DNA of 64,000 bases, from the NCBI GenBank assembly GCA_964372875.1, contig CAYJTB010000002.1:21576-85575 (forward strand), written 5' to 3'. The position numbers were made by a program, and so were the translations under genes. This DNA comes from an uncultured bacterium (GTDB taxonomy: Bacteria > Omnitrophota > Omnitrophia > Omnitrophales > JACQLI01). A model generated the notes under the pieces. It saw only the letters and a list, made by a program, of their open reading frames with translations. It did not search any database and was not told the origin of the DNA. Of the stretch, positions 3,318 to 22,980 are shown one piece after another. Position 1 is the stretch's first letter; the number at the start of each line of letters is the position of its first letter.

Positions 3318-3348
3318 GCTTTAAATAGCTTTGCACTGACGCACAACA

Positions 3349-4599: not shown

Positions 4600-4612
4600 C
4601 CCTCAACTTACT

Positions 4613-5347: not shown

Positions 5348-6068
5348 CCCCGCAGGCGGACCCGCGAATTACCTTTTAGGGATTCTTAGAGCGCTCAAAG
5401 CCGATTTTTTGCATCTGGGCCCCTCCGAAATTCTGGCGCCTCATATTCTTTCACGCCGTTTCGACACAATCATTCTAAGCGATTTCTCAGCCCAAAACGT
5501 CCCACAAACGTCCCAAAAAATCATTCGCGAACAACATTTATCCGGCGCCGGATTAATCATGGTGGGAGGCTGGGGATCTTTCTCAGGGCCTTTCGGCGGG
5601 TGGCGGGGAAGCGCGATTGAAAAAATCCTTCCGGTGTCTTGTCTGGCACGAGATGACCGCACCAATTTTCCGGGCGGCGCTTTGATGACTCTGAAGGCAA
5701 AACACAGCATGTTTAATAAAATCGATTTCAAAAATCCGCCTGTCATCTGTGGTCTTAATGAAATCCGCCCGAAAAAAGAGGCCCTCACGCTTTTAAGCGC
5801 AAGAAAAGTTCAAATAAAAAAAGGCGGCTGCAATCCTCAAATTGCTCTGGATCAAAAAGAATACCCCTTGCTTGTGATTGGAAGAAATCAACACCAAAGA
5901 GTCGCCGCTCTCACCACAGACCTTGCCCCGCATTGGTGCGGAGGATTAGTTGATTGGGGAGGGAAGCGTTTGAAGCTTCGCGTAAATTCCAAAATCCAAA
6001 TTGAAGTAGGAGACTTTTACGTGAAGTTTGTTTCCGGTCTCATCCGTTGGCTCGCCAAACAAGAATAG
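5322..6068 (+). CDS. Class-I glutamine-amidotransferase-like fold protein (DUF1355-like), function unknown
   Basis: MKILYAGDSPAGGPANYL...GLIMVGGWGSFSG resembles the putative-GATase family. The start overlaps the end of tatC by 26 nt. Confidence 0.45.
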   Translation: MKILYAGDSPAGGPANYLLGILRALKADFLHLGPSEILAPHILSRRFDTIILSDFSAQNVPQTSQKIIREQHLSGAGLIMVGGWGSFSGPFGGWRGSAIEKILPVSCLARDDRTNFPGGALMTLKAKHSMFNKIDFKNPPVICGLNEIRPKKEALTLLSARKVQIKKGGCNPQIALDQKEYPLLVIGRNQHQRVAALTTDLAPHWCGGLVDWGGKRLKLRVNSKIQIEVGDFYVKFVSGLIRWLAKQE

Positions 6069-6104
6069 AAAAAATTTACGCGAAGAGGAAGCCCTGAAAT
6101 CCGA

Positions 6105-9100
6105 TTAAGCAGCGATGGCCATCTGTTTTGCGGCCTCGAAGACCTTCCAGATCGCTTCCACTAAGGCAAAAGCCGAGCTCTTTATTTTGAAACGGGATCC
6201 GTTGATCTCAAAGAGATCTTGTTTTTGTGAAAGGCTCAGAACATCTTGAGCAAGTTTGGTGGAAGCACCTGACATAATGACAAGATAAGCAGCGCGTTTA
6301 GCTTCTGGAATAGAATAGGTCACAGAACGCAGACTTTTTCCAAAGTCTTCGCCAAATTCAGCGATCTTATCAGACAGGTTTTCCGGAAGGCTCAAGACAA
6401 AATAACGTCCAAGAAACGTTTGAAATTTAACCTCACCTTCAGGAAAATATTGCTTGTGCGCTTCATGGGCTGCCTTCAAGACTTCCTTTCGTAAACCGAT
6501 CCAATCGGGCGCGTAAACAAGATTTGCCCGGCCATCGGGGACAAGCTTTGTAAGTTCATCCATTTGTTTTGTGAGTTCGTCCTGATCTTGCTGATTCTTC
6601 ACCGCCTCCGGGGTTACAAAAATACTCACTCTGGCTTTCTTATTTTCGACGAGGGGAACAATAAGGCCTCGAAGCTCTGAAGTGCTTGGAACATAATCTA
6701 AAGTCGCCACATGCACTCCGGGTTGATTCGCTCCTTTTGCCAACAATGTAAAAATGCGAGCGATTTCACTATTAAATTGAATACTCTCTGTTTCCGGTCT
6801 CTCACTTTGTTTGGAAAATTCAATTAAAGCTGGAAGAATTTCTTCATCGTCAGGACTAAAGACCCACCGCATTTGTTTGGCGATTTCCAAGATAGCCCGA
6901 ACGACCGTCTTTGGATCCATCTTAGGGTTAGAATAGGGACGATGTTTTACAGCCCTTTCCATCAAAGAGAGGGTGAGAACCTCAGTTTTGGGGGAAATTC
7001 TCATTTCCGAGCGGCCGGCTTCAGTGTCCGGCGGAGTCGGAGGCACTTGAGGAGGCTGGCGGAATAAATTCTCAAGGCTCGCCCGGTCCTGCTCTTTCAA
7101 AAGGTGAAGCGCAAAAATTCGCCCGGCAAGGGTTTCAATAAGTTCTTCCATGGCCGGCGTGAGCGGTTGCGATTTCACCCGAAACATCTTTATGTATTCA
7201 GAAGGAAGCGGAACATTATTCGCAATATCTGCAAAAGATTTGTTATCCGTTAATACAGCCACCGGGTTTTCCTTTTCATACTTACCTCCCTGAACATTTT
7301 GGAAGTAAAACTTTCGGGCGTCTTCAGGGGTGAGTTCACCTTTCAAACGGAGAAGCTTTTCAATGAGCTCAGTTCGTGGCTCAAGCGTCGTAAGAAAATC
7401 AATGAGATCTTTATAATTCCTGTCAAACCTTGCCAGCGGTTCGGTAAGACTCCAAACCTCGCTGCGCATTTCGGAGCGGTTCGGATTTTCGCCTTGACCG
7501 GGAAGGCCCTTCTCCAAAAGGTTGCGGATAAACAGAGCCGTGCTAAAAAGAAAATGTTTGGCTTCTTCATTAGGAACATCTTCCTTTTGGCTCGCTGTAT
7601 TTAAGGCGCTTGCGTAGCGCATGAGTTCGCTGCTAAAACGCGCAAGAACGCTTTGAGGATCTTTGTATTCCGGATTCGTTTCGGGATGAGTGAAGGAATA
7701 GGTTAGAGTCGATTCCCCCCCCGCCGTTTTTTCGGATTCGATCAAAGTGACTTCATTCTTATCGGGTTCAACCGTTAAATTCCAGTAAAACCCGTGCCCT
7801 TCTTCCAATTCCACGCTGTTGGACACCACGATTTTTCCGCCTTCCCCTTTATCAGACGGCAGTTGTTGCAATTGGATTTTATATTCAACGCCGTTCGCCG
7901 CCGTGAGTTGGGTTTCGTAAATATTTTTGGTATGAGTAGGCGCAATTAAAGGTATGCGCTCTGAGGTAGAAATGACTTTATGATAATAGGGAGAGGAAAT
8001 CAGTTGAGAGGGGATAGATTGGGCTTCGCCCTTAGAAGAATACAGGAGCGTCTCGGCGGGTTTTTCCGGGTTAGGTCCCAATACAAGGTAAAGCTCCGTT
8101 TCCAATTGAGTCTTGGCACCCTCGGGCACGGTGATCTCAACCTGCCCCTCTTCCGTGACCTTTTGAAGCGTCTCGACTAAATGTAAAATTCGGCCCACCA
8201 AGACATCGCCTTTTTCCGCTTTAAACAAAATGTCCTGAGGCCGAACCTCTTTTTCTGAAAAGGGCGACAGTTTGACTCGGTTGAGAAGCATTTTGACTTC
8301 ATAGCCAAAGCCGCTGGATTGTTCAGAAATGCTTTTGATTAACTCTTCACGATGGGCCAGCTCCCACAATTTGGAGAGGTATTGCTTTAATTCTTCATCA
8401 CTGGCCCGCGCCTCGGAACGGAAGTTGCGGGAGTCTGTGTGAGGATCATACATAGGTTCAAGGGCCCGACGGATGGGGTCAAAGACGAAAAAATGTTCCA
8501 GATGAAGACTGGGTTTATGGATCCCGGCATAGGCGTCCTTAACACGTGACGGTGAAAATACTATTTCCACGGCGCCAGCTATCGCGAGGATATTGCTGTA
8601 ATCTCCCGATCGAAACCAACGAATCAGCTCGTCTTTCGTGGGAGGAAATTCGAGCCTCCGATCTTCCAACGTCTTTTTCCATTCGTCAGGAAGATTTTCT
8701 TTCTTATACTGTGAAGCCATTTTTGAAAGAGTCTCCAAATCTCTTTCGTCAATCAGCCCATCCAAAACAGGATCGGCGATAAAACGTGGCGGTTTTCTCG
8801 GTTCGCGAATCTCGTAGAGCCTCCATTTCATACCGGTCGGTGAAAACTCGAGCACAAACCGCTTTAATTGTTCTTCCAGGCCCGCTTGATTTTCCGGAGA
8901 ATCTTCAGCCTGAAAAAGAAGATGATCGGGAGTCCACCGGTTTACCTTGTAGCCGCCGCCTCTAAAATATTCGGTTTCTGTTGCCTTGAGGTAGTCAAAC
9001 GCCGCCATTTTTTCTACGGGAAGCAGCTCCTTGATCCGATTTTGGAGGGCTTTAATAGCATCGCCGACGCTCATTCCTTTGCGCGCTTCGGGATCATCTG

Positions 9101-12100
9101 ATTCAAACAAGCCCGCGGGCGTAAGAAGCTTAGGAGTAGAATTCGCGACTTTGGCGGCGAAGTTGCCTTGGGGGTCAACTAATTTTTTCCTAAGAAGCGG
9201 TTGAGAAAAATCACCGGCATTCCTCAACCCTTCGATCGGGAGTTTGAGATCAAGATAGATGGGATAACGGGTCGAATCCACGATAAGAAACCGGTTCTGC
9301 CAGCCTAAGTTTGCGCGTTCTTTTAAGGAAACGATGCTGAAATTGTTAGAAATTGCCTGCTCCATGGTCGTTGTGGTGTGTCCGCCGATGGCGAAATCCA
9401 CTCCGTTTTTTTCTACATAATCAGCAATCGCACGTTCGGAGTAATCGCGGCTCCAAAGCGTTTCGAGAAGAGGGTTTGTTTGGCGCTGTTCTTTCTGCGA
9501 TCTTGGAATTCGCGTAAGGTCTCTTACTTCGGGCGTGAAGAAATTAATAACGTCTTTCAAGCTTTGAATGTTGTGAACGGCTCCCGCATGAGCTAACAGA
9601 ATTTTAGTCCGGTCATCTTCAGAATGAATTTTTAAAACAACGGGAGAGGCCTGTATGTAGTTCTTAAAACCTTCGAGGGCTTCTTCGGAAAATGGTTTTC
9701 CTTCCCCGAACACCTCTTTTTCAAAAAATGAATTTTGGGTTGTAAGACGCTTTTGTTGCCAGATAGCAAGCCCTCCCATTTCGTGAGGGAGATGAGCATA
9801 GTCATGATTGCCGGGAAGATAATGCACCTGAACAGGGAAACGGCGCTTCAACGCCAAAATTTGCAGCAAGGTTGTGAAGGAATCCGCATAAGCCTTGGGA
9901 TCTTCGAAGAGTTCGCTTCGATGAGTATGAATCGCATCGCCCGTAATCACAAGATGAGCGTTTTTATCTTTGCGGAGCGCCCGTTCGATATCGACTTCTT
10001 TTAAAATTGCCGCCAGATTTTCATAAGCGCCGTGAAGATCGCCGATCACAATCAGCCGGTCCGCGTTTTTAATTTCTACCAAAGCGCCCGGTTTTCCGTG
10101 ATCATCGAGCCACCGGACGCTGCGCTCCCGATTATTGATCTCTTCTCCCTGAGAGTGAAGCGGGTACGCATCAAGTGCCGTCACCGCCCGCGCGAAAAAT
10201 TTTTCCGCACCCTCTTTCATAAAGAATTCGTACATTTGTTCTTTATCCAAAACCGCGTCCTGCTTCGCTCGCACCTCGGCCCTCGCCCGCTCAGGCGAGG
10301 ACGGAGGAGTACCCGAATCCAACCGATTTGGGCGCACCTCGGCTCTTGCACCGGATTCTCTGAATTTTTCGGTTTCTAAAGTGAGGGATTGACCGTTCCC
10401 AGTTTGTGGATAATGACGGGCGGATTCAAGGACATTGATTTTCGAAGGACGGCTTACGATTCCGAAGTGCGTCTCGAGTTCTCCAAGGAGGCGGAAGATA
10501 ACTTCGTCTTCTTGAATGCTTGGGCTATAAGATCTCTGCTTCATGAAGTTCAGAGCTCGTTTGATCGTTCGAGTGTCGTAATTCTGAACGACGTATTGAA
10601 CGACCTCATTATCTTTACTGCGCACCTCGGCCCTCGCCCGCTCAGGCGAGGACGGAGGAGTACCCGAATCCAACCGATTCGGGTGCACCTCGGACCTTCG
10701 ACTCGGCTCCGTCCCGAGCGTAGTCGAGGGGCTCAGGTCAAAAACACTCGGCCCTGAGCGAAGCCCTTCGGACTGAGTCGAACGGGCCTCGGAGCGGGAT
10801 TGTAAGCTGGCGGGAATGGGATCGAGATCCGTTTGCTTAAGTTCTTGAATTTCTAAAGATTCATGATTCGGTGTAATTTCTCGCTCCCAAAGGATCAGAA
10901 CGCCCGGGGCTTTTAATCTTTCCCAAATCATTCTCGCTCTTTCCTTGATGGTCTCCGAAGTCCAGTGTTCTCCCATCCAGGTGTTTCTCCAAAAGAAGAT
11001 ATGAGAAGGCGCAATAAATTCTGGATGAGCGGGAAGATCAAACAGATTTCCGTAAATTCCTTTGAATTCAACATCGATTCGGGAACGGTCCGTTTTGGGT
11101 AATTCAAGAAGCCGGTCTTTGATTACTTGTTCAAGCTCCAGAAGCGCTTCTACACTTTGGTTTACCACCTGTAAAACGAGATGGATTTTTTGTCCCTTGC
11201 CTTTTAGGGTTTTTAGTTCAGCGATCACCGTTTCGACGGTCTCCATCAATTCATCCCCTTGCTTACCCGGTCCCAACGTCGTCACGACCATCCCACGCGT
11301 ACCCGCTTCCACTAAAGAATGAACGGCCGAACGCAAAGCTCTTTGCTCGTTCTCTTCTAGAGGAAAATTCGAATCCGAGATGGCTTGTCCTTGATCCAAT
11401 CCTGTTTGAACCAAACGACGAATCTCTTGTTCGTCTAAGTCGGTGTAAGGCAGGAAAAAATCTACGATTTTACCCGGCTTCCATAATTCAGGCCGGAAAG
11501 TCCCGCGCCGCATTTCCAATTGCTGCGCCACAATTTTTTCCAAACGTTCTCTTTTCGTGTCACTCCGCACCTCGGCCCTCGCCCGCTCAGGCGAGGACGG
11601 AGGAGTACCCGAATCCAACCGATTCGGGTGCACCTCGGACCTTCGACGCGGCTCCGTCCCGAGCGTAGTCGAGGGGCTCAGGTCAAAAACACTCGGCCCT
11701 AAGCGAAGCCCTTTGGGCTGAGTCGAACGGGCCTCGGAGCGGGGGGCCGTTATTTTATCTTTAATAATATTATGGTTGACTTTTAATAAATCATTTGTTA
11801 CCCTTTCCCCGTTCTGAAATGCTAAGGTATGATGAAAGGAGAACAAGCCTGAGGTGAAAATATTCTGGACTCCAAAACGGTTGGAGGCGATGTCAAAAAC
11901 TTCTTTAACGCTGTTCCAGGCATTTTTGGTGGCAGCAGTAGTTGGTGGCGTGTTAGGCAAAATTCCGAATGCCTGGCTCAAGTTGTTTTTTCTGTCGGCG
12001 ACGTTTAGCTTTTTGGTATTAGGAATTATAGTGGCCGATTGGCCTTTAATGAAAAAAGAGGAGGCCTGAAATGTTTGCTCTGATCTTTGCTTTGGTTCTG

Positions 12101-15100
12101 ATATTTGTAATTGCTGCTTGGATTGGAATCGAGCAGTACCGCCTGAAACACCGGCGTCATTAATCGTTTCCGCATTTCGCATCTCGGCCCTCGCCCGCTC
12201 AGGCGAGGACGGAGGAGTACCCGAATCCAACCGATTCGGGCGCACCTCGGAACGGGGGCCTTGGTTATCTTCAAACCCGCCGGCGATCTTCAAATCCTGA
12301 AGGCGATCATCAAGCCGCTCCACGGCGTAGTCAAGCCCCTGGAGAAGGTGGGCTTCCTTTTCCGGATCATTTTGCATGGAATTTTTTAAATCGGCGATCA
12401 GGGATTTGGCTTCACCGGCTTCACGGAAAATGGTTTCGACAATCTCCGGACTCACTCTCTGACCCGTATTATTGTGATGCTTCAACGCCTCCATCAGATT
12501 TCCGCGCAGCTTAATCAAGCTTTGATCCAGCAAACGGCGCAATTCCTCAGGCGTCTCGCCTCCTCCCTCAAGGGGCTCCGGAGTCGGTTGCGCCCGCACC
12601 TCAGCGCGGGGCAGCGCTAGAAACGTAGTTTTATTTAAATCAAATTTTTCTTGACTATAAAATATATCCTTGTTAAACTCTCCTTTAATGAAAGATCGAA
12701 CACGACGGCTTGAGTCTGGTAAAATGCTACTGGACGTCTCAAAGTATTTCTCGACAGTTACGGGCATCGGAAGCCTGGCGGGCGGTTCCGTGAATTGGCG
12801 GTTAGCCGCTGTAGGTCTATTCATGGCGTTCGTATCTTGGTTTGTCGGATTTGTGACAATTCCTAAAGATGAGGAAACCAAATGACTAATTTTGAAATCA
12901 CGGCCATTGGCATCGGGATATTCGCCCTGGCGGTGGGCCTGACGGTCTACCTCACCGAGCGCTGGGACTCGATGCGCCATAACTCCCGTAAGCCCAAACA
13001 CGCCTAATTTAACATCCCCGCTGTTTTTCTCACTCCGCACCTCGGCTCTCGCCCGCTCAGGCGAGGACGGAGGAGTCTCCGGCCGGTCAGCCGGAGGCAC
13101 CTCGGCTCTCGAGTCGGCGCGGGTGCGTTCCTGCCAACTCAAAATGATTTTTTGGATTTCTGGATGAAGTCGAAACGCCGCTGATCGAAACATTTCGAGC
13201 GGAGGCGCCTCCGACAATTGTAATTTTGAGTCGATTCCCTCTTTCCCCTGAGACTCTATCGATCTTTGGAACTCCGATAAAAAATAAAATGCGTAAATCC
13301 GCTGAGTAAGATTGTCTAACCCCGAGGCCCAGGCCCGAAAGTTGCCAAGGCCGAGCTGTATTTCCTTTTCAAGAATCCGGATAGGATCGCCCTGCGCCTT
13401 TAAAATTTCCTCATACCTTCCTTCGAACAATGCCCTTAGGCCCTGTGCGTCGCGCCCTTTCGCGGCACGTAAACTCGATTGAAAACGCTTGGGAAGAAAC
13501 AATCCTTTTTCCTTCCCCCACTTGATGGCTTCTTCCTGTCGCGATGTTTCATAAAATTCATTTGCCATAAGGATGGCAACAAAGCGTAGAATTTGTTCGT
13601 CATATTTTGATAAGAACCGGTTTACCGAGTCCCGGGGCCAAAAAGGTTGCGGGTTTCCCTCAAAAAGGGAAGCGGCCTCATTTCGGATGATGGGAATTCC
13701 TTCCTTCAATAGTTCCTTGTGTTCCGGATCACTCCACTTGAAAGCGGCACCCCCCCAAGCTTCACGGATGATGTCGGAGGCAAAGCCTAGAAAAAAATAA
13801 TCCAGAGAATCAAGATTTTGAATGGCATTCCATCTCCAATAAAGATGCGCATCATTGATGCGTATCGTCATGGTTCCTGATGGGTCATCTTTTTTCTTTG
13901 CGTAAATCATTCCTTGTCTTGCCAGTTCAGCAGGCAGCGGCTCCGCTTTCTTGACCGCTTCCTTATAGTTCTTGAGAACCTCGGGATGCGGGTATCCTTG
14001 TTCAATCAACCAATCAATCGTTGCCGAAATGGCTTGTTTGATACTTTCCAGATTGGGATCAACTTTGAAACGCAATTGTTTTGGCAATTTTGCCGGTGTG
14101 CTTTGGGTGGATGAAATACCTTTGAGGTCTCCGACGATTTTTACAATTTTTTCGAGTTGATCATTCGTCAGTCCTAGAATTCCCTTTTGATTTTTTATTT
14201 TTTCTTCAAGGATTCGCCGCAGCTCCTGCACGGTCAATGTTTCACTTCTGTAAAGAAGCCTCAAGCGATCTTCGTTTAAACGGTCATGAAATTTTTGTGG
14301 AATACCGCTCTTGGCTTTGATGTTATCCCTCAGCATCTCGAGCTTCCTTTTTTCGTCCGTTCCGTGAGAATCTGCCCGCATCTCGGCCCTCGCCCGCTCA
14401 GGCGAGGGCGGAGGAGTACCCGAATCCAACCGATTCGGGTGCACCTCGGACCTTCGACTCGGCTCCGTCCCGAGCGTAGTCGAGGGGCTCAGGTCAAAAA
14501 CACTCGGCCCTGAGCGAAGCCCTTCGGACTGAGTCGAACGGGCCTCGGAGCGTGAAGTTTGATTTTTATTATAATATTTATTGATATAAAATGAAACTCC
14601 TGCTAGACTCCCCAGCGCATAAGGAGCTCTATTCATGAAAGAAATCTTTTCACCCGATCGGCGGGAAGTTGCAGCACGAACGTTATTCGATACCTGGAAG
14701 CTATCCGTCCCCGCCGCTGTAGCAGGAGGGTTCTTCCTCCAATTCAATATTTTTGTTAAAATCGCATTTGTGGTAGGGCTTTTAGCCGGATTTGCCTTGG
14801 CATTTTTTATGTTCCCTCCGGAATCAAGGGGAAAAGGAGGTTGAGATGTTAGTTGCTGTGAGTATTTTATTGGTGTTGGTTCCCGCCGTCCTTCTTGCAG
14901 GAATGTATTTAGAACAGTACCTGAGGAAGCGTCGTCACCTACATTAGAAAGGAGCGGCTGAGATGGACGTTGCTTTGATTTCGATATTTGGGATCCTTGT
15001 AGTGATAGGGACGTGGTTTGGGATTGAGAAGTACCAGGAACGCCGGAAGAGACACCTTCATTAAACCTTCCGGTATTCTTCTCACTCCGCGCCTCGGAGC

Positions 15101-18100
15101 GGTTGGCACCTCGTGCTAGTTGGTCGGCTTTTTGAATTTTCTTTTTCAAGAGATTAAGGTTAGGAATCGCCTTTTCACTCGCGATCTTGTCTAAAGTTTC
15201 AAGAGCAAGTTTAGAAAAGCCATCTTCGGCAAGTTTTTCAAATGCGTCTTGACTTTGTGCCTGTTCTATTAAACCCTTCTTAAATTGTTCAACGATGTAA
15301 ATTGAAAAATCTTCAACCCCTTTTCTACGAAAGTTCGGAATCAACAAAGATTTCTTCGTCTCATCAAGAACGAAAAAATTGGAACTCCATTTCCTAATAA
15401 ATCGGATATGTGACGAATTGATAAATCTTCCGGTTTGTGGGTCTTTTCGGAAAAGATCTATCAAATATTCTTTCAATTTTGCGCCATTCTTCTCTTCTAT
15501 TATCGCCTCAAACAAAGCGTGATTTTTCCCAGCATCCTTCTCCGGATCCCCTAAATAACTAGCATCTTCAAACTCTTTTTGTAACGATGGAAAAATTTTC
15601 TTGAGCAGTAGCAGCTCTTCCTCAAACCTCTTCTTCAATCCTTTGGATTGGATAATGGGCAATGGAAGCTTCCGAAATGCTTCTATTTTTTCATCCCCCA
15701 TGCCGTAGGGATTTATATCTATCGAATTCCGAATAGCGTGAAGAGCCTGAACATTTTCGGGAATATCTAAATTCAATTTCTGAATCGCTTCCACAAAAGC
15801 AACGTCTTTAGTTCTTTCGCTCGCCCGCACCTCGGCCCTCGCCCGCTCAGGCGAGGACGGAGGAGTACCCGAATCCAACCGATTCGGGTGCACCTCGGAC
15901 CCTCGACGATCAGAAGTTAGAAGTCGGGAGTCAGATATCAGATTTGCCTCCGAGCGGGAAAACACTATTTCCTTATTCGTCAAAAATATATTGACTTTTA
16001 AGGAATATGGATATACACTCATTGCCGCAAAAGGAGAGTAAGTTTTGTTTACACCGCTTCGAAGATTTGAATATGGTAGGATGCTGTTGGCATTGATCCC
16101 CGTGCTTGTGGGCTCGGCAGTGGTAAGCCGTGTGTTTACAGAAGCACCGCCGTTCTTTAGAATAGGGGTGGTATTGCTGATATTAGTCATAAGCGTGCTT
16201 GGCTTTATTATTTTACCCGCATCAATGGAAACTAAAGAAGGGAGGCGTTGAAATGATAGATACCGCGACGGCAGCTCTTCTGGGTGTTTTTTTAATGTTG
16301 ATTGTGATGATGTCTTGGTTTGGGATCGAGAAATATCTGGAGCGGCGGAAGAAGACTCATTGATAACACCCGGCAGCTCAAAATCAGCGAGAATTTCTTT
16401 TTGAGTCGTCGGAGCGGAGCGGGCGTCTAGGACAGGCGTCTCAACCGTGATGGTTCCAAACGGGATCACGATCGGCGCGCCGTAGATATTACGAAGTGGT
16501 TTGTTTTCCACATTGTCCCACACGATAGCTTTCTCGCCCGTGCGGCTTAAAATAAGAACAAATCTTCGGTCAGAGGCGTAACTACTTTGATTGATAGCAC
16601 GAATAATTCGTGACGCCGCCATCCTCTCATCTTTTGCTGTCTCAATAATTGCCTGAAGAACACTTTTAATTTCTTGAATAATGATTTTGGGCCGGACGTT
16701 TTGATCACGCGTTGTCATCCGCATCCGGATGGCATTGGAGATTTCTTTGATCGCAGGCTCGAGGTAGTTTACATCAAACGAGGTTTTCTTTTCGCCGAGA
16801 AGAGACGAGATGTAATCTTGAGACGAAGTTTTTTCTGTGATGCGCGGAGAGAGGATCGTGTAAGAAATTCCTTTTTTTCGGAAGGCGCGCGAGAGTCCGT
16901 CGGCGTGGAAACCGCCGGTGATGAGGACGGTGACGCCGTTCTCCCTCATCTTGCTCTTCTCCTCCCGAGGGGGAGAAGAGACAGTTGAGGGGGGATTTAA
17001 TATTTTTTCCACCATCACATCTTCACGTTTTTTGGCAAGTTGGTAGAAACGCATTGCCTGTTGGTAAAGATATTCAATCGCCCGGATGTTCGCAGGAATG
17101 ATTTGAGACGGACCCAAGTTTGTTTTGTCATGAAGAGATTGCATATCAATAAGGTAACGGACAAGCGGGCGGTCGATCGTTTCAGCTTGCTGGATTTTGA
17201 CGTAATCTTTGGGCGTAAGTTCCAAGTCAAAGAGCCGCTCGAAAAGTCCGCCGCGCTGGGCAAGCCCGACCAGTTTTAATTCTTCCGGTTGGGCAGCAAC
17301 GGCTTGGATTAGATTTTGAAAGAGCCGCTCGATTTCACCAAAAAGCCGTTCCGCATCGAGTTCGCTTTGTAAAACAGCCGCCTCCAAATAATGTGTGAAG
17401 TAGGGATAGTGATCAAAAGAAAATCCCTTATCGACTGTGGAGACTACAAGGTATTCCGCCAAATAACGCGGCAGATCATTTTTATTAAAACCAGGATCGT
17501 AGACCATTCCCGTTTGGTAAGGGGAGAACGAGAGGTTTTCAAAGGCGTGGACAAGAACGGGATGAACCCCGATTTCTTTTAAGTCAGCGATTAATTTTTG
17601 ACGGTCCGTTTGAATTCGTTCAGGATCAAGGCCCGACTCCGCCTCCTGAAGCCTCAAGAGCCTGATCATCTGCGGCCAGTCTTTTTGGCTCTCAAAGTTT
17701 CTAAGATCCACGCCCAGAATTTGTTTGGTTCTTCGCTCGAGTTCAAAGGCATAAGAGAGAAGTTCCATCTGGCCGGCCTCAAAAGATTCATTCGTTCGGA
17801 GCAGTGTTCTCGTATGAGGCGTTAGCAGATGAGTTCCAAGCCGGTCGAGTTCGCCGTCCAGTCCTTTGGTGAAAGTATTCGTTTCATTTTGCCGGCTCAT
17901 TACAATTTGAAAACTCTCTAGGTTATCCCGGTAAAGATCAGGATCTTCAATTCCGTAGGCGGGGATTTTTTCCTGTGATTCAATGAGGAAAAGTTCCGCT
18001 CCCGTCAGTTCGCCCTTTTCAACAAGCTTTTGGGCAACCTCCACGTTCAACTGGTTTTGATCAAAAAATTTGAAGTAGTCGGGGTTGAGTTTTTCGCCGG

Positions 18101-18431
18101 CGCCTTCAATGAATAAAGCGCGAACGCCGTATTTCTCGTCCAGAAATTTTAGAAGGGCAAAAATCTTTTTCTGTGTCTCGGCGTGTGCGTGAACCGATTG
18201 GATATGAATGAGAGGAATATTTTCTGTTTTTGTGTCGGGAAGAAATGCTTCTTTAATCGAAGCAAGCTCCTGGGGAATTCCGAGGGGCATCAAAGACAAG
18301 GGAAGATTTTCTATGCCGCCTTCGGCCTTCGCGGGTGGAACGAGGATGGACGATGCAATGACACACATCGCGACCAAGAGAGATATAAACTTTTTATAAG
18401 TCTTCATTAATGTCATAAATCTAATTTTCAA
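6105..18431 (-). CDS. Giant secreted modular protein (4108 aa). It has a signal peptide, a Tiki/ChaN/TraB-like N-terminal domain, several unknown modules and a calcineurin-like metallophosphatase module. REP-encoded linkers and low-complexity linkers separate the modules.
   Basis: This is a single stop-free frame of 12,327 nt and the only minus-strand gene in the window. The N-terminus KFISLLVAMCVIASSILVPPAKA is a signal peptide. IHIQSVHAHAE...ALFIEGA...VLITGGFHADG (about 16850-18250) resembles the Tiki/ChaN fold. LIVIGDLHG...VITGDAIH...LPGNHDY...GGHTTT (about 9350-10130) are metallophosphoesterase motifs. The start could be TTG 18431, ATG 18416 or ATG 18407. Confidence 0.75.
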   Translation of the reverse strand: MKIRFMTLMKTYKKFISLLVAMCVIASSILVPPAKAEGGIENLPLSLMPLGIPQELASIKEAFLPDTKTENIPLIHIQSVHAHAETQKKIFALLKFLDEKYGVRALFIEGAGEKLNPDYFKFFDQNQLNVEVAQKLVEKGELTGAELFLIESQEKIPAYGIEDPDLYRDNLESFQIVMSRQNETNTFTKGLDGELDRLGTHLLTPHTRTLLRTNESFEAGQMELLSYAFELERRTKQILGVDLRNFESQKDWPQMIRLLRLQEAESGLDPERIQTDRQKLIADLKEIGVHPVLVHAFENLSFSPYQTGMVYDPGFNKNDLPRYLAEYLVVSTVDKGFSFDHYPYFTHYLEAAVLQSELDAERLFGEIERLFQNLIQAVAAQPEELKLVGLAQRGGLFERLFDLELTPKDYVKIQQAETIDRPLVRYLIDMQSLHDKTNLGPSQIIPANIRAIEYLYQQAMRFYQLAKKREDVMVEKILNPPSTVSSPPREEKSKMRENGVTVLITGGFHADGLSRAFRKKGISYTILSPRITEKTSSQDYISSLLGEKKTSFDVNYLEPAIKEISNAIRMRMTTRDQNVRPKIIIQEIKSVLQAIIETAKDERMAASRIIRAINQSSYASDRRFVLILSRTGEKAIVWDNVENKPLRNIYGAPIVIPFGTITVETPVLDARSAPTTQKEILADFELPGVINESSSAAPDISRSQTKTSSQSTLKKHPEELPSRYLSFQRLPSLVSIDAGKIIKPSTLMTNISNTTPILKNGGASVNTRLTTAEPTSTGINANSILPYSNLRSGVNKTYSPFAAMSVYPYSLKVNIFLTNKEIVFSRSEANLISDSRLLTSDRRGSEVHPNRLDSGTPPSSPERARAEVRASERTKDVAFVEAIQKLNLDIPENVQALHAIRNSIDINPYGMGDEKIEAFRKLPLPIIQSKGLKKRFEEELLLLKKIFPSLQKEFEDASYLGDPEKDAGKNHALFEAIIEEKNGAKLKEYLIDLFRKDPQTGRFINSSHIRFIRKWSSNFFVLDETKKSLLIPNFRRKGVEDFSIYIVEQFKKGLIEQAQSQDAFEKLAEDGFSKLALETLDKIASEKAIPNLNLLKKKIQKADQLARGANRSEARSEKNTGRFNEGVSSGVPGTSQSQTTSLSLQGSQISKSKQRPSQPLLSNVGDDASSGTVLNTFLQEGRREPTPIKYSQQLTSQPPFPLDSGGNIKNAKANPAKSPTTNAILTKILNWRKNPPATAAGTDSFQVSNNVRAATSRRSGEKISFMNRAPYALGSLAGVSFYINKYYNKNQTSRSEARSTQSEGLRSGPSVFDLSPSTTLGTEPSRRSEVHPNRLDSGTPPPSPERARAEMRADSHGTDEKRKLEMLRDNIKAKSGIPQKFHDRLNEDRLRLLYRSETLTVQELRRILEEKIKNQKGILGLTNDQLEKIVKIVGDLKGISSTQSTPAKLPKQLRFKVDPNLESIKQAISATIDWLIEQGYPHPEVLKNYKEAVKKAEPLPAELARQGMIYAKKKDDPSGTMTIRINDAHLYWRWNAIQNLDSLDYFFLGFASDIIREAWGGAAFKWSDPEHKELLKEGIPIIRNEAASLFEGNPQPFWPRDSVNRFLSKYDEQILRFVAILMANEFYETSRQEEAIKWGKEKGLFLPKRFQSSLRAAKGRDAQGLRALFEGRYEEILKAQGDPIRILEKEIQLGLGNFRAWASGLDNLTQRIYAFYFLSEFQRSIESQGKEGIDSKLQLSEAPPLEMFRSAAFRLHPEIQKIILSWQERTRADSRAEVPPADRPETPPSSPERARAEVRSEKNSGDVKLGVFGLTGVMAHRVPALGEVDRQAHRQGEYPDANGRDFKISHLVSSSLGIVTNPTNQDTNAMNRPTAANRQFTEPPARLPMPVTVEKYFETSSSILPDSSRRVRSFIKGEFNKDIFYSQEKFDLNKTTFLALPRAEVRAQPTPEPLEGGGETPEELRRLLDQSLIKLRGNLMEALKHHNNTGQRVSPEIVETIFREAGEAKSLIADLKNSMQNDPEKEAHLLQGLDYAVERLDDRLQDLKIAGGFEDNQGPRSEVRPNRLDSGTPPSSPERARAEMRNAETINDAGVSGGTARFQSKQQLQISEPKQRSEQTFQASSFFIKGQSATIIPNTKKLNVADRKNNLSQAFGILPNTPPTTAATKNAWNSVKEVFDIASNRFGVQNIFTSGLFSFHHTLAFQNGERVTNDLLKVNHNIIKDKITAPRSEARSTQPKGLRLGPSVFDLSPSTTLGTEPRRRSEVHPNRLDSGTPPSSPERARAEVRSDTKRERLEKIVAQQLEMRRGTFRPELWKPGKIVDFFLPYTDLDEQEIRRLVQTGLDQGQAISDSNFPLEENEQRALRSAVHSLVEAGTRGMVVTTLGPGKQGDELMETVETVIAELKTLKGKGQKIHLVLQVVNQSVEALLELEQVIKDRLLELPKTDRSRIDVEFKGIYGNLFDLPAHPEFIAPSHIFFWRNTWMGEHWTSETIKERARMIWERLKAPGVLILWEREITPNHESLEIQELKQTDLDPIPASLQSRSEARSTQSEGLRSGPSVFDLSPSTTLGTEPSRRSEVHPNRLDSGTPPSSPERARAEVRSKDNEVVQYVVQNYDTRTIKRALNFMKQRSYSPSIQEDEVIFRLLGELETHFGIVSRPSKINVLESARHYPQTGNGQSLTLETEKFRESGARAEVRPNRLDSGTPPSSPERARAEVRAKQDAVLDKEQMYEFFMKEGAEKFFARAVTALDAYPLHSQGEEINNRERSVRWLDDHGKPGALVEIKNADRLIVIGDLHGAYENLAAILKEVDIERALRKDKNAHLVITGDAIHTHRSELFEDPKAYADSFTTLLQILALKRRFPVQVHYLPGNHDYAHLPHEMGGLAIWQQKRLTTQNSFFEKEVFGEGKPFSEEALEGFKNYIQASPVVLKIHSEDDRTKILLAHAGAVHNIQSLKDVINFFTPEVRDLTRIPRSQKEQRQTNPLLETLWSRDYSERAIADYVEKNGVDFAIGGHTTTTMEQAISNNFSIVSLKERANLGWQNRFLIVDSTRYPIYLDLKLPIEGLRNAGDFSQPLLRKKLVDPQGNFAAKVANSTPKLLTPAGLFESDDPEARKGMSVGDAIKALQNRIKELLPVEKMAAFDYLKATETEYFRGGGYKVNRWTPDHLLFQAEDSPENQAGLEEQLKRFVLEFSPTGMKWRLYEIREPRKPPRFIADPVLDGLIDERDLETLSKMASQYKKENLPDEWKKTLEDRRLEFPPTKDELIRWFRSGDYSNILAIAGAVEIVFSPSRVKDAYAGIHKPSLHLEHFFVFDPIRRALEPMYDPHTDSRNFRSEARASDEELKQYLSKLWELAHREELIKSISEQSSGFGYEVKMLLNRVKLSPFSEKEVRPQDILFKAEKGDVLVGRILHLVETLQKVTEEGQVEITVPEGAKTQLETELYLVLGPNPEKPAETLLYSSKGEAQSIPSQLISSPYYHKVISTSERIPLIAPTHTKNIYETQLTAANGVEYKIQLQQLPSDKGEGGKIVVSNSVELEEGHGFYWNLTVEPDKNEVTLIESEKTAGGESTLTYSFTHPETNPEYKDPQSVLARFSSELMRYASALNTASQKEDVPNEEAKHFLFSTALFIRNLLEKGLPGQGENPNRSEMRSEVWSLTEPLARFDRNYKDLIDFLTTLEPRTELIEKLLRLKGELTPEDARKFYFQNVQGGKYEKENPVAVLTDNKSFADIANNVPLPSEYIKMFRVKSQPLTPAMEELIETLAGRIFALHLLKEQDRASLENLFRQPPQVPPTPPDTEAGRSEMRISPKTEVLTLSLMERAVKHRPYSNPKMDPKTVVRAILEIAKQMRWVFSPDDEEILPALIEFSKQSERPETESIQFNSEIARIFTLLAKGANQPGVHVATLDYVPSTSELRGLIVPLVENKKARVSIFVTPEAVKNQQDQDELTKQMDELTKLVPDGRANLVYAPDWIGLRKEVLKAAHEAHKQYFPEGEVKFQTFLGRYFVLSLPENLSDKIAEFGEDFGKSLRSVTYSIPEAKRAAYLVIMSGASTKLAQDVLSLSQKQDLFEINGSRFKIKSSAFALVEAIWKVFEAAKQMAIAA
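10270..10342. repeat. REP/MITE-like element, short form (two hairpins), in frame in the giant ORF
   Basis: CGCACCTCGG CCCTCGCCCGCTCAGGCGAGG ACGGAGGAGT ACCCGAATCCAACCGATTTGGG CGCACCTCGG. The element is bounded by a 10-nt direct repeat. On the minus strand it reads RAEVRPNRLDSGTPPSSPERARAEVR. Confidence 0.9.
10622..10797. repeat. REP/MITE-like element, long form (short form plus a second hairpin-rich sub-element), in frame in the giant ORF
   Basis: Nearly identical to 11566-11741 and 14377-14552. On the minus strand it reads RSEARSTQSEGLRSGPSVFDLSPSTTLGTEPSRRSEVHPNRLDSGTPPSSPERARAEVR. CCTCGG-containing 10-mers occur at both ends and at the junction of the sub-elements. Confidence 0.9.
11566..11741. 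repeat. REP/MITE-like element, long form
   Basis: Same sequence as 10622-10797 apart from a handful of substitutions. It lies immediately upstream (+ sense) of nested cassette A. Confidence 0.9.
11776..11804 (+). promoter_or_regulatory. Sigma70-like promoter of nested cassette A
   Basis: TTGACT (11776-11781), a 17-nt spacer, then TACCCT (11799-11804), with AT-rich sequence upstream. Confidence 0.5.
11854..12069 (+). CDS. Nested small two-TM membrane protein A1 (71 aa), antisense to the giant ORF
   Basis: GTG 11854 (or ATG 11890). There is a basic N-terminus, two hydrophobic helices (LTLFQAFLVAAVVGGVLG / LKLFFLSATFSFLVLGIIVA) and an acidic tail KKEEA. It is a paralog of B1, C1 and D1. Confidence 0.6.
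   Translation: MKIFWTPKRLEAMSKTSLTLFQAFLVAAVVGGVLGKIPNAWLKLFFLSATFSFLVLGIIVADWPLMKKEEA
12071..12163 (+). CDS. Nested single-TM peptide A2 (30 aa)
   Basis: The SD GAGGAGG lies 6 nt upstream of the ATG. Peptide: MFALIFALVLIFVIAAWIGIEQYRLKHRRH. Confidence 0.6.
   Translation: MFALIFALVLIFVIAAWIGIEQYRLKHRRH
12178..12250. repeat. REP/MITE-like element, short form
   Basis: CGCATCTCGG...GGGCGCACCTCGG. It lies 15 nt downstream of the stop of nested ORF A2. Confidence 0.9.
12651..12679 (+). promoter_or_regulatory. Sigma70-like promoter of nested cassette B
   Basis: TTGACT (12651-12656), a 17-nt spacer, then TAAACT (12674-12679), with AT-rich sequence upstream. ATG 12688 lies only about 9 nt downstream, so the leader may be very short. 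Confidence 0.5.
12670..12885 (+). CDS. Nested small two-TM membrane protein B1 (71 aa from TTG 12670; more likely 65 aa from ATG 12688)
   Basis: MKDRTRRLESGKMLLDVSKYFSTVTGIGSLAGG...LAAVGLFMAFVSWFVGFVTIPKDEETK, with the same architecture as A1, C1 and D1. Confidence 0.55.
   Translation: MLNSPLMKDRTRRLESGKMLLDVSKYFSTVTGIGSLAGGSVNWRLAAVGLFMAFVSWFVGFVTIPKDEETK
12882..13007 (+). CDS. Nested single-TM peptide B2 (41 aa)
   Basis: The ATG overlaps the B1 stop (ATGA), with the SD GAGGAA 5 nt upstream. Peptide: MTNFEITAIGIGIFALAVGLTVYLTERWDSMRHNSRKPKHA. Confidence 0.55.
   Translation: MTNFEITAIGIGIFALAVGLTVYLTERWDSMRHNSRKPKHA
13036..13105. repeat. REP/MITE-like element, variant short form
   Basis: It has the same ends (CGCACCTCGG / GGCACCTCGG) and the same first hairpin (CTCGCCCGCTCAGGCGAG). 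The second hairpin is replaced by a different self-complementary sequence (CTCCGGC CGGTCA GCCGGAG instead of ACCCGAATC CAACC GATTCGGGT). Confidence 0.85.
14377..14552. repeat. REP/MITE-like element, long form
   Basis: Near-identical to 10622-10797. It lies immediately upstream (+ sense) of nested cassette C. Confidence 0.9.
14581..14609 (+). promoter_or_regulatory. Sigma70-like promoter of nested cassette C
   Basis: TTGATA (14581-14586), a 17-nt spacer, then TAGACT (14604-14609), with AT-rich sequence upstream. Confidence 0.5.
14635..14844 (+). CDS. Nested small two-TM membrane protein C1 (69 aa)
   Basis: The SD AAGGAG lies 8 nt upstream of the ATG. Sequence: MKEIFSPDRREVAARTLFDTWKLSVPAAVAGGFFLQFNIFVKIAFVVGLLAGFALAFFMFPPESRGKGG. 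Confidence 0.65.
   Translation: MKEIFSPDRREVAARTLFDTWKLSVPAAVAGGFFLQFNIFVKIAFVVGLLAGFALAFFMFPPESRGKGG
14846..14947 (+). CDS. Nested single-TM peptide C2 (33 aa)
   Basis: The SD AAGGAGG lies 5 nt upstream. Peptide: MLVAVSILLVLVPAVLLAGMYLEQYLRKRRHLH. Confidence 0.6.
   Translation: MLVAVSILLVLVPAVLLAGMYLEQYLRKRRHLH
14963..15064 (+). CDS. Nested single-TM peptide C3 (33 aa)
   Basis: The SD AAAGGAG lies 8 nt upstream. Peptide: MDVALISIFGILVVIGTWFGIEKYQERRKRHLH. Confidence 0.6.
   Translation: MDVALISIFGILVVIGTWFGIEKYQERRKRHLH
15826..15898. repeat. REP/MITE-like element, short form
   Basis: CGCACCTCGGCCCTCGCCCGCTCAGGCGAGGACGGAGGAGTACCCGAATCCAACCGATTCGGGTGCACCTCGG. It lies upstream (+ sense) of nested cassette D. 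Confidence 0.9.
15991..16019 (+). promoter_or_regulatory. Sigma70-like promoter of nested cassette D
   Basis: TTGACT (15991-15996), a 17-nt spacer, then TACACT (16014-16019), with AT-rich sequence upstream. Confidence 0.5.
16045..16251 (+). CDS. Nested small two-TM membrane protein D1 (68 aa)
   Basis: TTG start with the SD AAAGGAGAG upstream. FTPLRRFEYGRMLLALIPVLVGSAVV...RIGVVLLILVISVLGFIILPASMETKEGRR. Confidence 0.6.
   Translation: MFTPLRRFEYGRMLLALIPVLVGSAVVSRVFTEAPPFFRIGVVLLILVISVLGFIILPASMETKEGRR
16253..16363 (+). CDS. Nested single-TM peptide D2 (36 aa)
   Basis: The SD GGGAGG lies 7 nt upstream. Peptide: MIDTATAALLGVFLMLIVMMSWFGIEKYLERRKKTH. Confidence 0.6.
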   Translation: MIDTATAALLGVFLMLIVMMSWFGIEKYLERRKKTH

Positions 18432-18516
18432 TCTATGTTAGGTGATTGTTCCTCCTAGAGATGGAAGCTCCTAAAATATACCCCGTGAACAGGCAGGCGT
18501 CAAACGAAGCGCCCGC

Positions 18517-18545
18517 TTGACGGGATTTAAATAAATGTGTATAGT
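18517..18545 (+). promoter_or_regulatory. Sigma70-like promoter of the sulfate-assimilation operon
   Basis: TTGACG (18517-18522), a 17-nt spacer, then TATAGT (18540-18545). It sits in the divergent region between the giant ORF and cysC. Confidence 0.55.
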
Positions 18546-18603
18546 CTTAAGTCTTTTTATAACAAGGAGATAAGCTATTAAAACCGAAGGAGGAGTTAAA
18601 GAA

Positions 18604-19158
18604 GTGGGCAATAAGAAATATACCCTGCAAAGGGGGGTTACGATTTGGTTCACCGGTCTTCCTAGTTCAGGCAAATCCACGGTCGCCCGGATCTTGGAAC
18701 GCAATTTTCGCCAATGGGGTCTCAAATGTGAACTTTTAGATGGCGATGTGATCCGTACCAACCTCAGCAAAGGTCTGGGATTTTCCCGTGAAGACCGTGA
18801 CGCCAACATTAAACGCATCGGTTTTGTGGCGCACCTTTTGACCCGTAATGACGTCATTGCGATGGGTGCTGCGATTTCACCTTTCCGCGAAGCGCGGGAT
18901 TACAATCGCAAACTCATCGGCAATTTCGTCGAAGTGTTTGTGAAATGCTCTGTTGATGAATGTGAGAAACGCGATGTGAAGGGACTTTTTAAGAAAGCCC
19001 GCGCGGGAGAAATCAAAGGTTTTACCGGCGTGGATGATCCTTACGAAGAGCCGCTTCACCCGGAACTTATCTTAGAGACGGAAAAACAATCGGCTGAAGA
19101 GTCGGCGGATATCGTCGTGAAAAAATTGGAAGAGTTAGGATATTTGAAGGCTCAATGA
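18604..19158 (+). CDS. cysC: Adenylylsulfate (APS) kinase
   Basis: GTG start after GGAGGAG. P-loop GVTIWFTGLPSSGKSTVA, and a length typical of CysC. Confidence 0.9.
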   Translation: MGNKKYTLQRGVTIWFTGLPSSGKSTVARILERNFRQWGLKCELLDGDVIRTNLSKGLGFSREDRDANIKRIGFVAHLLTRNDVIAMGAAISPFREARDYNRKLIGNFVEVFVKCSVDECEKRDVKGLFKKARAGEIKGFTGVDDPYEEPLHPELILETEKQSAEESADIVVKKLEELGYLKAQ

Positions 19159-20000
19159 ATCAGGTCGATCTTCACATGCACACCACGCATTCCGACGGCA
19201 CTTTTCTGCCCCGGGATCTTGTGAAGCACGCGAAGGAGCGGGGACTCAAATGCATTTCCGTGACCGATCACGATACCATGTCGAGTTATGAGGAATGCCT
19301 TGATGAGTCAAAAAAGTTAGGGATCGAACTGATTCCAGGAATTGAAATCAGTGCCGATTTTGAGCCGGGGACCCTTCATATTCTTGGGTATTTTCTGGAT
19401 CCCGAGCAGCCGGAGCTAAAGAAAACGCTCCTCGATATTCAAAAAGCACGGCTTGAACGAAATCCTCAGATCATCAAGAAATTAAATAACATCGGAATTG
19501 ATATCACGCTGGAAGAAGTGATTGCTGAATCGGGCGGAAAACAAGTCGGGCGTCCGCATTTCGCGCGGGTACTTTTGAAAAGAGGCTTCATCAAAAACAT
19601 GGAAGAGGCCTTCCGAAAATATTTGGCCAAAGGAAAACCGGGGTACGTGGATAAACGCAGACTTTCTTCTAAAGACGCCATCCAGAGTATTCATCAAGCA
19701 GGCGGGATTGCATCCATCGCGCACCCTAAACAGATGAAACTCCAAGAGCCCGAACTTTCTAAAGAATTCGAGCGGCTCGTGGATGAGGGATTGGGTGGTA
19801 TCGAGGCGTACAATAGTTGCCAAAGCGCTGCCGAAGCCAAGATCTACAAGCAAATCGCAAAACGTTTTAATCTCATCGTTACAGGCGGTAGTGATTTTCA
19901 TGGCGCCAACAAACCCGACGTGCAGTTAGGAAGTTTTGGCGCAGACCTGGACTACAAAGTGATTGAAGACATGAAAAAGTTTGTATGGGTGAAGAAATGA
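19155..20000 (+). CDS. PHP-domain phosphoesterase, probably a 3',5'-nucleotide bisphosphate (pAp) phosphatase
   Basis: VDLHMHTTHSDGT...ISVTDHDT...GGSDFHG are PHP motifs. The gene is translationally coupled between cysC and cysH, which fits the COG0613 pAp phosphatase family. Confidence 0.7.
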   Translation: MNQVDLHMHTTHSDGTFLPRDLVKHAKERGLKCISVTDHDTMSSYEECLDESKKLGIELIPGIEISADFEPGTLHILGYFLDPEQPELKKTLLDIQKARLERNPQIIKKLNNIGIDITLEEVIAESGGKQVGRPHFARVLLKRGFIKNMEEAFRKYLAKGKPGYVDKRRLSSKDAIQSIHQAGGIASIAHPKQMKLQEPELSKEFERLVDEGLGGIEAYNSCQSAAEAKIYKQIAKRFNLIVTGGSDFHGANKPDVQLGSFGADLDYKVIEDMKKFVWVKK

Positions 20001-20024
20001 CCGTCATGACGAATTTGAGGAGCA

Positions 20025-20804: not shown

Positions 20805-20828
20805 AATGAAGGAGAATGATTACATCTA

Positions 20829-22976: not shown

Positions 22977-22980
22977 AGCG

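Follow-up and report, generated by a model that had tools for sequence, protein, structure and literature searches.

A recurrent R-[AS]-E-x-R pentapeptide marks module boundaries in a giant Omnitrophota protein family and may be a cleavage site

We analyzed a stretch of 64,000 nucleotides from an uncultured Omnitrophota bacterium (GenBank assembly GCA_964372875.1, contig CAYJTB010000002.1, positions 21,576 to 85,575, hereafter the window) that carries a giant open reading frame (ORF) of 4108 amino acids (aa), whose features are listed in Table 1. The predicted protein is identical to a database protein of 4103 aa (P0001), the start of which lies 5 codons downstream of that of the 4108-aa ORF, and its cargo amounts to 13 or so modules. 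An initial annotation, made from the letters alone, had reported that the pentapeptide R[AS]E[VAM]R punctuates this protein. Counting confirmed the excess, with 17 sites against 0.034 expected from composition, and recovered all five solo sites that had been proposed; the other 12 lie within or at the ends of repeats labelled REP. In the remaining ORFs of the window (16,146 aa), R[AS]ExR occurs once, with 0.57 expected. At the DNA level, the core CCGAGGYGCG is present in 9 copies in the window versus 0.24 expected, and all nine fall within the giant ORF, on its strand and in frame. By inspection, the 14-nt site core CGCNCCGAGGNGCG forms an imperfect palindrome.

Table 1. Coordinates of the giant ORF and of its modules, boundary sites and repeats (positions in the window; residues of the 4108-aa protein)
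Feature	Residues	Positions	Strand	Remarks
Giant ORF	4108 aa	6105-18431	-	TTG start, stop codon 6105-6107; conserved N-terminus, variable middle, conserved C-terminus
N-terminal hydrophobic segment	6-36	18324-18416	-	Sec-type signal peptide or anchor, possible cleavage between AKA and EG; by inspection
N-terminal domain	45-565	16737-18299	-	probable TIKI/ChaN/Ere/TraB-like fold, large helical insert
First linker	826-869	15825-15956	-	degenerate long REP: RSEAN...RGSEVH...RAEVR
Solo site RSEAR	1111-1115	15087-15101	-	codons CGC TCC GAG GCG CGG
Module J2	1116-1293	14553-15086	-	38% identity to P0077 2628-2752
Long REP	1294-1352	14376-14552	-	RSEAR, 28-aa spacer, RSEVH, 16-aa spacer, RAEMR
Divergent short REP	1773-1799	13035-13115	-	SRAEV...RAEVR
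Solo site RAEVR	1942-1946	12594-12608	-	codons CGC GCT GAG GTG CGG
Short REP	2060-2085	12177-12254	-	RSEVR, 16-aa spacer, RAEMR
Module J4	2086-2230	11742-12176	-	37% identity to P0069 906-1023
Long REP	2231-2289	11565-11741	-	
Long REP	2546-2604	10620-10796	-	
Short REP	2696-2721	10269-10346	-	
Module M7	2722-3337	8421-10268	-	contains metallophosphatase
Solo site RSEAR	3338-3342	8406-8420	-	
Solo site RSEMR	3652-3656	7464-7478	-	codons CGC TCC GAA ATG CGC
Module M9	3657-3806	7014-7463	-	site-bounded on both sides
Solo site RSEMR	3807-3811	6999-7013	-	codons CGC TCG GAA ATG AGA
C-terminal module	3812-4108	6108-6998	-	conserved; ends ...QMAIAA

Searching with the whole protein gave 59 matches, the query's database copy among them, all 2.4-7.1 thousand aa (kaa) long, which share just their first ~560 residues with the query. 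The taxonomic spread of the family was taken from the source names of the matched proteins, and the named members of this set are mostly Omnitrophota. Their cargo carries Pfam domains of PGI, PGM, FBPase, adenylate kinase, HPr, PTS enzyme I, CsrA, sigma-70 region 4, NUDIX, YdcF, kinases, methyltransferases and glycosyltransferases. When 1.84 billion representatives clustered at 50% identity were searched with a profile of the N-terminal domain, 10,057 matched, including 7058 with an E-value of at most 1e-30, and the domain was always N-terminal. The motif recurs across this family, and most of the first set are punctuated by it: the 59 proteins contain 311 non-redundant R[AS]ExR sites, and 134 further representatives contain 551 where 18 are expected (a ~30-fold excess), with at least 3 sites in 59 of the 87 further representatives of at least 1500 aa. 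Single proteins reach high counts, as in P0002 (15 strict R[AS]E[VAM]R, 13 of them RAEVR), P0005 (15 RAEVR), P0014 (27 RxExR), P0015 and P0022 (21 each), P0026 (12 RSELR) and P0032 (10 RSEQR). R, E and R are constant and position 4 varies, being mostly V, L, A, M, T, S or I and also Q; it is more uniform within a protein than across proteins (0.35 versus 0.16), and several proteins use one pentapeptide throughout. The first site falls after the N-terminal domain (median residue 659), and the spacing between sites (median 256 aa, interquartile range 142-465) is that of ordinary proteins. Flanks are unrelated between sites, and most sites of the family are solo pentapeptides without a surrounding repeat. 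The residues enriched before the motif (P/S/A) and after it (A/S/T, then E) are as for an exposed linker.

The motif had been proposed to sit at boundaries between unrelated modules, and this proved to hold across the family. Among the first five proteins, the tabulated Pfam domains are free of strict R[AS]ExR sites, and with the loose pattern R.E.R only 2 of 113 sites fall inside the 21 domain stretches tabulated for ten proteins, versus 8.6 expected; strict sites thus avoid Pfam domains. Both exceptions (REEIR and RPEGR) lack [AS] and are chance-type matches. In the window protein the only Pfam match is the metallophosphatase of module M7 (PF00149, E = 3e-15, residues 2792-3019, positions 9375-10058), which had been placed at about 9350-10130 and has no site inside it; an NCBIfam search of the same protein gave nothing relevant. 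A module homologous to M7 is found in P0066 (33% identity, E = 2e-53). The AlphaFold2 model of residues 3501-4108 has a folded domain up to about residue 3642, with confidence below 50 from residue 3643 and low across the site at 3652. Elsewhere in the family, modules resemble whole proteins: GT5 and GT1 together make up one 819-aa module, an APH kinase takes up 390 aa, and CheR, HPr plus receiver, CsrA and sigma-70 region 4 occur likewise, the HPr beginning a few residues after a site. Several independent units are thus held in one ORF, as judged from unrelated Pfam domains, whole-enzyme sets, recurrence at different positions in other members and the signal peptides that some modules keep.

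Where a window module has a relative in another member, their edges fall at sites in both. The edges of M9 (3652-3807) are sites in both partners, its homolog in P0082 (residues 1907-2048, 36% identity) lying between sites at 1909 and 2051. The alignment of J4 starts at a site in the window protein (from 2081) as in P0069 (from 907), and the right edge of J2 (to 1294) coincides with a site, as does that of its match in P0077 (to 2747). These alignments show that the units exchanged between family members are modules delimited by the motif, which we call the mark. J2 and J4 appear to be of low complexity, yet they are conserved in other family members, and their mark-bounded homologs there identify them as real modules. 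We also considered the S/T/N/Q-rich segments J1-J4 as non-coding inserts or as copies of one repeated element, and rejected this, the four being mutually dissimilar.

Both ends of the protein are conserved around this variable cargo. At the N-terminus the window protein reads, by inspection, MKTYKKFISLLVAMCVIASSILVPPAKA followed by EGG, and a comparable hydrophobic stretch is present in 124 of 197 family members. The last module (3812-4108), of a generic Rossmann-like fold, is also the last module of at least 7 other members (P0078, with 43% identity, P0003, P0004, P0098, P0100, P0069 and P0002), and 147 of 200 family proteins (P0001-P0200) end in -AA or -SA, whatever their cargo or mark. The conservation of both head and tail shows the whole frame to be translated to its end. 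The -[A/S]A ending may act as a degron, its small residues being recognized in the ClpX or Prc manner, or else as a signal for secretion of a type I-like kind; HlyA, too, ends in Ala.

Distant members carry other marks at the same places. GARL[A/S/T] punctuates P0049 (20 copies) and P0056 (13), A[AS]SLG punctuates P0024, P0016 and P0046, and PRDHDDP punctuates P0019, often beside RSELR; each time the first copy stands right after the N-terminal domain. Such lineage-specific marks are what is expected of a recognition site that co-evolves with its enzyme. Some modules, in addition, open with a targeting signal of their own. Tat signals follow directly after sites in P0082 at 2468 (TRRTFLQAGALAALGLAAL), P0096 at 4385 (SRRNLLLGALGLSLG), P0113 at 804 (DRRDFLK) and P0026 at 702; a Sec signal with an AxA site follows the mark at 748 in P0111, and lipoprotein signals with a lipobox follow sites in P0042 at 3267 (...LPLAAGC) and P0100 at 718. 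Hydrophobic starts are found after 6.2% of sites versus 2.6% of random positions. These signals directly support the modules as former or functional separate proteins and, because targeting signals normally need a free N-terminus, they indirectly support cutting.

The site codons point to selection on the peptide and also to shared descent. In P0005 all differences among the 15 RAEVR sites are synonymous (CGC/CGA/CGG/CGT for the first Arg, GCC/GCG, GAG/GAA, GTG/GTA, and CGG/CGC/CGT/AGG for the last Arg). The RSELR sites of P0026 encode Leu by TTG, TTA, CTC or CTG and the first Arg by CGC or AGG, and the GARL sites of P0049 use all four Gly codons, CGG/CGA/AGG/AGA for Arg and TTG/CTT/CTG/CTA for Leu. 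In the window, the solo sites use CGC, CGT, CGG and AGA for Arg, GAG/GAA for Glu and TCC/TCG for Ser, and sites at REP ends use AGG or AGA for the first Arg. The motif thus recurs at boundaries and is conserved at the amino-acid level, and these comparisons of coding sequences show it to be a protein-level mark between modules under purifying selection. The initial annotation had weighed a processing site against the protein-level shadow of a DNA site, and the synonymous variation within genes, together with the spread through the family, the avoidance of Pfam domains, the exact fit to the edges of shuffled modules and the other marks in distant relatives, favors the former. The choice of codons is not free, however. 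Of the 15 sites of P0005, 12 have CGC for the first Arg and 14 have GAG for Glu (background 41%); in P0026 first Arg is CGC in 11 of 12 sites and Ser is never AGY (background 46%), always TCN. The shadow alternative is upheld to this extent, that the site codons (Ser always TCN, first Arg mostly CGC) show shared descent. We read the linkers as descending from one another by duplication or recombination and as then being held by selection on the peptide.

With moderate confidence, we interpret the giant ORF as a processed polyprotein and the mark as its cleavage site. The precursor would consist of a Sec-type signal or anchor, a TIKI-superfamily domain, variable unrelated modules and a C-terminal module ending in [A/S]-A; a site-specific endopeptidase would recognize R-[A/S]-E-x-R and divide the precursor into separate proteins, and double or triple sites with 13-37-aa spacers, REP linkers included, would be trimmed out. 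As a weaker part of the proposal, the cutting enzyme would be the family's own N-terminal TIKI-like domain. Cutting could take place in the cytoplasm of the producer, in its periplasm or in a prey cell. Several points weigh against this interpretation. About 15 of the 87 long members are without R[AS]ExR, an alternative mark having been found for only some of them; the AlphaFold2 model around the site at 3807 is too poor to judge; the biased site codons (CGC, TCN, often GAG) also fit a spread of linkers at the DNA level; and export, implied by the N-terminal Sec signal, is at odds with the cytoplasmic type of much of the cargo and with the Tat signals of some modules. The data presented here fit a cleaved site and a conserved uncleaved linker alike, and cleavage is what we infer.

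The N-terminal domain is the only universally conserved protease candidate. Its structural model (pLDDT 83, pTM 0.79) has, by structure comparison, an alpha/beta core with a parallel beta-sheet as in the TIKI/TraB/ChaN/erythromycin-esterase superfamily, to whose catalytic residues its conserved His...Glu...His residues, the first two 28 apart, may correspond; unlike other members, it has a helical insert of ~330 residues between the halves of the core. Ten positions are invariant in 58 of 58 aligned members (Q78, H81, E109, G110, Y167, R469, G506, G507, H509 and P529), giving a His-28-Glu pair and a GGFH motif; E162 and Y540 are further invariant residues of the domain. According to PMC6254334, active TIKI enzymes have a His-Glu pair and a second His (H3902, E3930 and H4030 in RRSP; H85 and E113 in Bcr135), and the spacing of 28 between H81 and E109, their putative counterparts, equals that of RRSP and Bcr135. 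Two residues before H81, at the first acidic position of the 2His/2Glu set, Asp stands in the consensus and in most members and Ser in the window protein. Some members of the superfamily are site-specific endopeptidases (Tiki, RRSP), others esterases and one a haem-binding protein. Foldseek comparison of the model against the PDB gave nothing significant, a profile search of PDB sequences with the domain gave nothing relevant, and Pfam gave no match for the window domain, neither to PF04187 or PF01963 nor to the other TIKI profiles; Cofac_haem_bdg matches were obtained in 3 of 16 members, the best at E = 0.01 and below threshold. As Foldseek against the PDB and sequence profiles lend no significant support, we rate a TIKI/ChaN/Ere-type fold as probable from the model and treat the protease role as conjectural: that this domain is the protease cutting at the mark is a tentative proposal, and one we would on the whole rather doubt than accept.

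Among other explanations, the one that survives best is that the mark is an uncleaved connector in a single membrane-anchored multi-enzyme scaffold, acting as a docking site for a partner or chaperone, as a modification site or as a charged cap holding adjacent modules apart. It accounts equally well for the position between domains, for selection on the amino acids and for the spread through the family; published work treats multi-enzyme giants as possibly single products, and the conserved extreme C-terminus speaks for selection on the full read-through product. On the other hand, five residues with invariant R, E and R and free flanks are more typical of recognition by an enzyme, a single structural role would hardly account for marks as different as GARL, ASLG and PRDHDDP, it is not obvious what tandem sites with short repeated spacers would do in a scaffold, and Tat, Sec and lipobox signals right after sites suggest free N-termini. 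We regard the connector as possible, and its probability as low.

Less probable still is a DNA-level origin, in which the mark would be what a site of recombination or insertion, the junction of a cassette or a small mobile palindrome (REP-like) leaves behind in frame, and the amino acids would matter just for keeping the frame open. One ground for it is the REP copies of the window. The short REP, 84 nt as a DNA repeat, has a coding unit of 78 nt or 26 aa (motif, 16-aa spacer, motif), and the long REP, 182 nt as a DNA repeat, one of 177 nt or 59 aa with three motif-like sites and two spacers (16 and 28 aa). Copies are 96-100% identical in DNA, and the long REP at 10620-10796, taken as RNA, folds into five hairpins (-97 kcal/mol, z = -4.1). 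The divergent REP at 13035-13115 keeps hairpin 1 with unrelated letters (CUCCGGC...GCCGGAG versus CCCGAAUC...GAUUCGGG at 10269-10346), which hints at selection on the structure of linker DNA or RNA besides the encoded sites. The imperfect palindrome of the 14-nt core, the codon bias at sites (Ser never AGY; first Arg CGC) and the fast turnover of cargo at the orthologous locus described below point the same way. The within-gene differences between sites, in contrast, are synonymous and include two-base changes (CGC/AGG, TTG/CTN), position 4 varies at codon positions 1 and 2 with R/E/R fixed, and most sites of the family have no repeat around them. Nor was REP found outside this gene: in the window it is confined to the giant ORF, one strand and one frame, with none of the dispersal over genes and intergenic DNA that a Rickettsia palindromic element (RPE) would show, and exact scans of public genome and metagenome contig collections gave no match. 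On these codon, solo-site and REP-confinement data, the DNA-level explanation accounts for the spread of linkers and not for their retention; the codon data contradict a purely DNA-level footprint, and a DNA-level process probably describes how linkers spread. Of the DNA-site alternative raised in the initial annotation, what stands is therefore the part that concerns the REP copies, near-identical, hairpin-rich and found just in this gene, and sequence comparison favors a processed polyprotein over a mere DNA shadow.

We infer that the REPs are recent intragenic duplications or gene-conversion products of multi-site linkers, whose hairpins may favor recombination or slippage. CCGAG occurs 5-6 times per long REP, between successive hairpins (10617-10798; copies at 11562 and 14373). 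Paired sites are not peculiar to the window: 85 cases with spacers of 1-40 aa were found in 37 family proteins (P0014, P0071, P0019 and 34 others), and some short spacers recur inside one protein, for example PEINISGTxLxTG and EARMGLSDPQSLNPIGS in P0014, a parallel to the REPs of the window. If the sites are cut, the short spacers between paired sites would come free as peptides.

A signal in the RNA (an RNase site in the mRNA, a ribosome pause, stop-go or re-initiation) would yield separate products with no protease, and would agree with the codon preference at sites and with the strong structure of REP as RNA. A scan of 5000-20000 with Rfam, however, gave only a chance-level match, so that no known ribozyme or RNA family explains REP; most sites of the family have neither surrounding structure nor nucleotide conservation, the GARL sites being nucleotide-diverse; and cleavage of an mRNA that leaves no stop codon would lead to non-stop products. 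The known stop-go peptides depend on a longer conserved peptide upstream. We consider such a signal very improbable. An artefact of misassembly or a chance open frame, with the mark as a by-product of repeats, is scarcely credible, for although internal repeats of 84-182 nt could confuse short-read assembly, an open frame of 12.3 kb at 47% G+C cannot be chance, conservation across the family extends to the first and the last module alike, many independent assemblies gave the same sequence for the ortholog and the architecture is common to more than 7000 representatives.

Several known systems resemble the processed polyprotein proposed here. MARTX toxins of Vibrio and relatives are likewise giant (3.5-5.3 kaa) and secreted, with conserved ends and shuffled unrelated effector modules, and their modules are released by site-specific cuts from a protease domain of the same polypeptide. 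That protease, of the C80 cysteine type, cleaves on the C-terminal side of Leu and depends on host inositol hexakisphosphate for its activation, and the toxins have glycine-rich repeats and type I secretion. The window protein has no RTX repeats and no C80 domain by Pfam; its mark is R-[AS]-E-x-R, its candidate protease the TIKI-like domain behind a Sec-type signal, and the cargo of the family consists for the most part of housekeeping-type proteins (glycolytic enzymes, HPr/EI, CsrA, kinases) instead of recognized toxins. One MARTX effector, RRSP, has the TIKI fold (PMC6254334), as the N-terminal domain here probably does. By analogy, the window protein may at most work like a MARTX toxin, and is not a member of that class.

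Viral polyproteins of the picornavirus, potyvirus and nidovirus type also encode many unrelated products in one ORF, with occasional tandem sites and with cleavage motifs that are short, differ between lineages and co-evolve with the protease embedded in the polyprotein. The giant ORF differs in being a cellular chromosomal gene in a conserved bacterial neighborhood and in a module content that turns over far faster than in viruses; no viral protease fold was found. RPEs and in-frame miniature inverted-repeat transposable elements (MITEs) or REP elements are similar to the window REPs in being short, hairpin-forming, near-identical and in frame, and in adding a peptide segment. RPEs occur dispersed in many genes as well as between genes, and in either orientation, unlike the window REP, which lies always at module junctions in one gene, strand and frame and is built on the family's own boundary motif.

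The giants and Archaeovorins described from Omnitrophota (West-Roberts et al. 2023, preprint; Nielsen & Lui 2026, preprint) belong to the same phylum and have N-terminal signal or transmembrane segments; the multi-enzyme giants of that phylum carry the same kinds of cargo (PGM/PMM, FBPase, PGI, starch synthase, GT1, methyltransferases, receivers and kinases). The proteins of the preprints have at least 10-30 kaa. The preprints propose cleavage into several products from C39 and S8 peptidase domains and state that the cleavage points are unknown; the giant genes are a recognized puzzle, the two main surveys ask whether the products stay whole or are cut, and in one of them missing cleavage points blocked structure prediction. 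Neither preprint mentions a recurrent motif at boundaries, a TIKI-like domain at the N-terminus or an [AS]A ending. The motif is not mentioned in the Nature Microbiology survey or in other papers on these proteins either, and a literature search for the pentapeptide gave nothing relevant; the literature searched contains no description of the motif, of the TIKI-like head or of the [AS]A tail.

The mark is thus the first concrete candidate for the cut points of Omnitrophota giant proteins. It makes the question of whole or cut products directly testable and supplies a rule for splitting giants into units for structure and function prediction. Head, tail and mark together characterize a family of great size, with more than 7000 representatives at 50% identity and a shared grammar. 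The semi-tryptic termini at RxExR that had been suggested as a proteomic test would be confounded, as a cut after either Arg of the mark would resemble a tryptic cut. If cutting is confirmed, no larger class of cellular polyproteins would be known, and the family would offer a new pair of protease and site of possible use as a tool. More speculatively, and in our estimate unlikely in this full form, thousands of self-processing polyproteins across the phylum could combine a Sec-targeted TIKI-type protease with a lineage-specific cleavage code (R-[AS]-E-x-R, GARL, A[AS]SLG, PRDHDDP) and release shuffled enzymes, regulators (CsrA, sigma-factor domains), kinases and signal-bearing modules, maybe in or at a prey or host cell whose sorting machinery they might use. 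If true, this phylum-wide system would be to cells what polyproteins are to viruses, and would add a new route of effector delivery.

The window locus (1-6068 and 18604-24255) is colinear with that of P0005 in another genome. On one side of the giant gene stand APS kinase, PHP protein, PAPS reductase and ATP sulfurylase, and on the other a GATase1-like protein, TatC, a ROK protein and glucoamylase. P0005 is therefore a syntenic ortholog, and the same sequence was assembled independently on ~10 contigs. Flanking genes are 52-86% identical and the N-terminal domains 54%, while the cargo (6005 versus 4108 aa in total length) is almost wholly different, with two modules weakly similar. This exchange of mark-bounded cassettes, with near-complete turnover of cargo between syntenic orthologs, is a striking mode of gene-content evolution. 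No neighboring gene is common to the four loci with context (P0005/window, P0026, P0015 and P0049), and accordingly no conserved gene for a trans-acting protease is evident from them.

Directly upstream of the giant gene and on the same strand lies an ORF of 128 aa (18471-18857, minus strand), which overlaps the APS kinase gene (18604-19158) on the opposite strand and has no Pfam match; it is probably not a gene. On a contig of ENA ERZ1426829, P0008 (3744 aa) and P0015 (5668 aa) stand in tandem, with a 55-aa ORF and a PilZ-domain gene between them; PilZ genes adjoining giant genes were noted by West-Roberts et al. The mark of P0008 is RSDxR and that of its tandem neighbor P0015 is RSExR.

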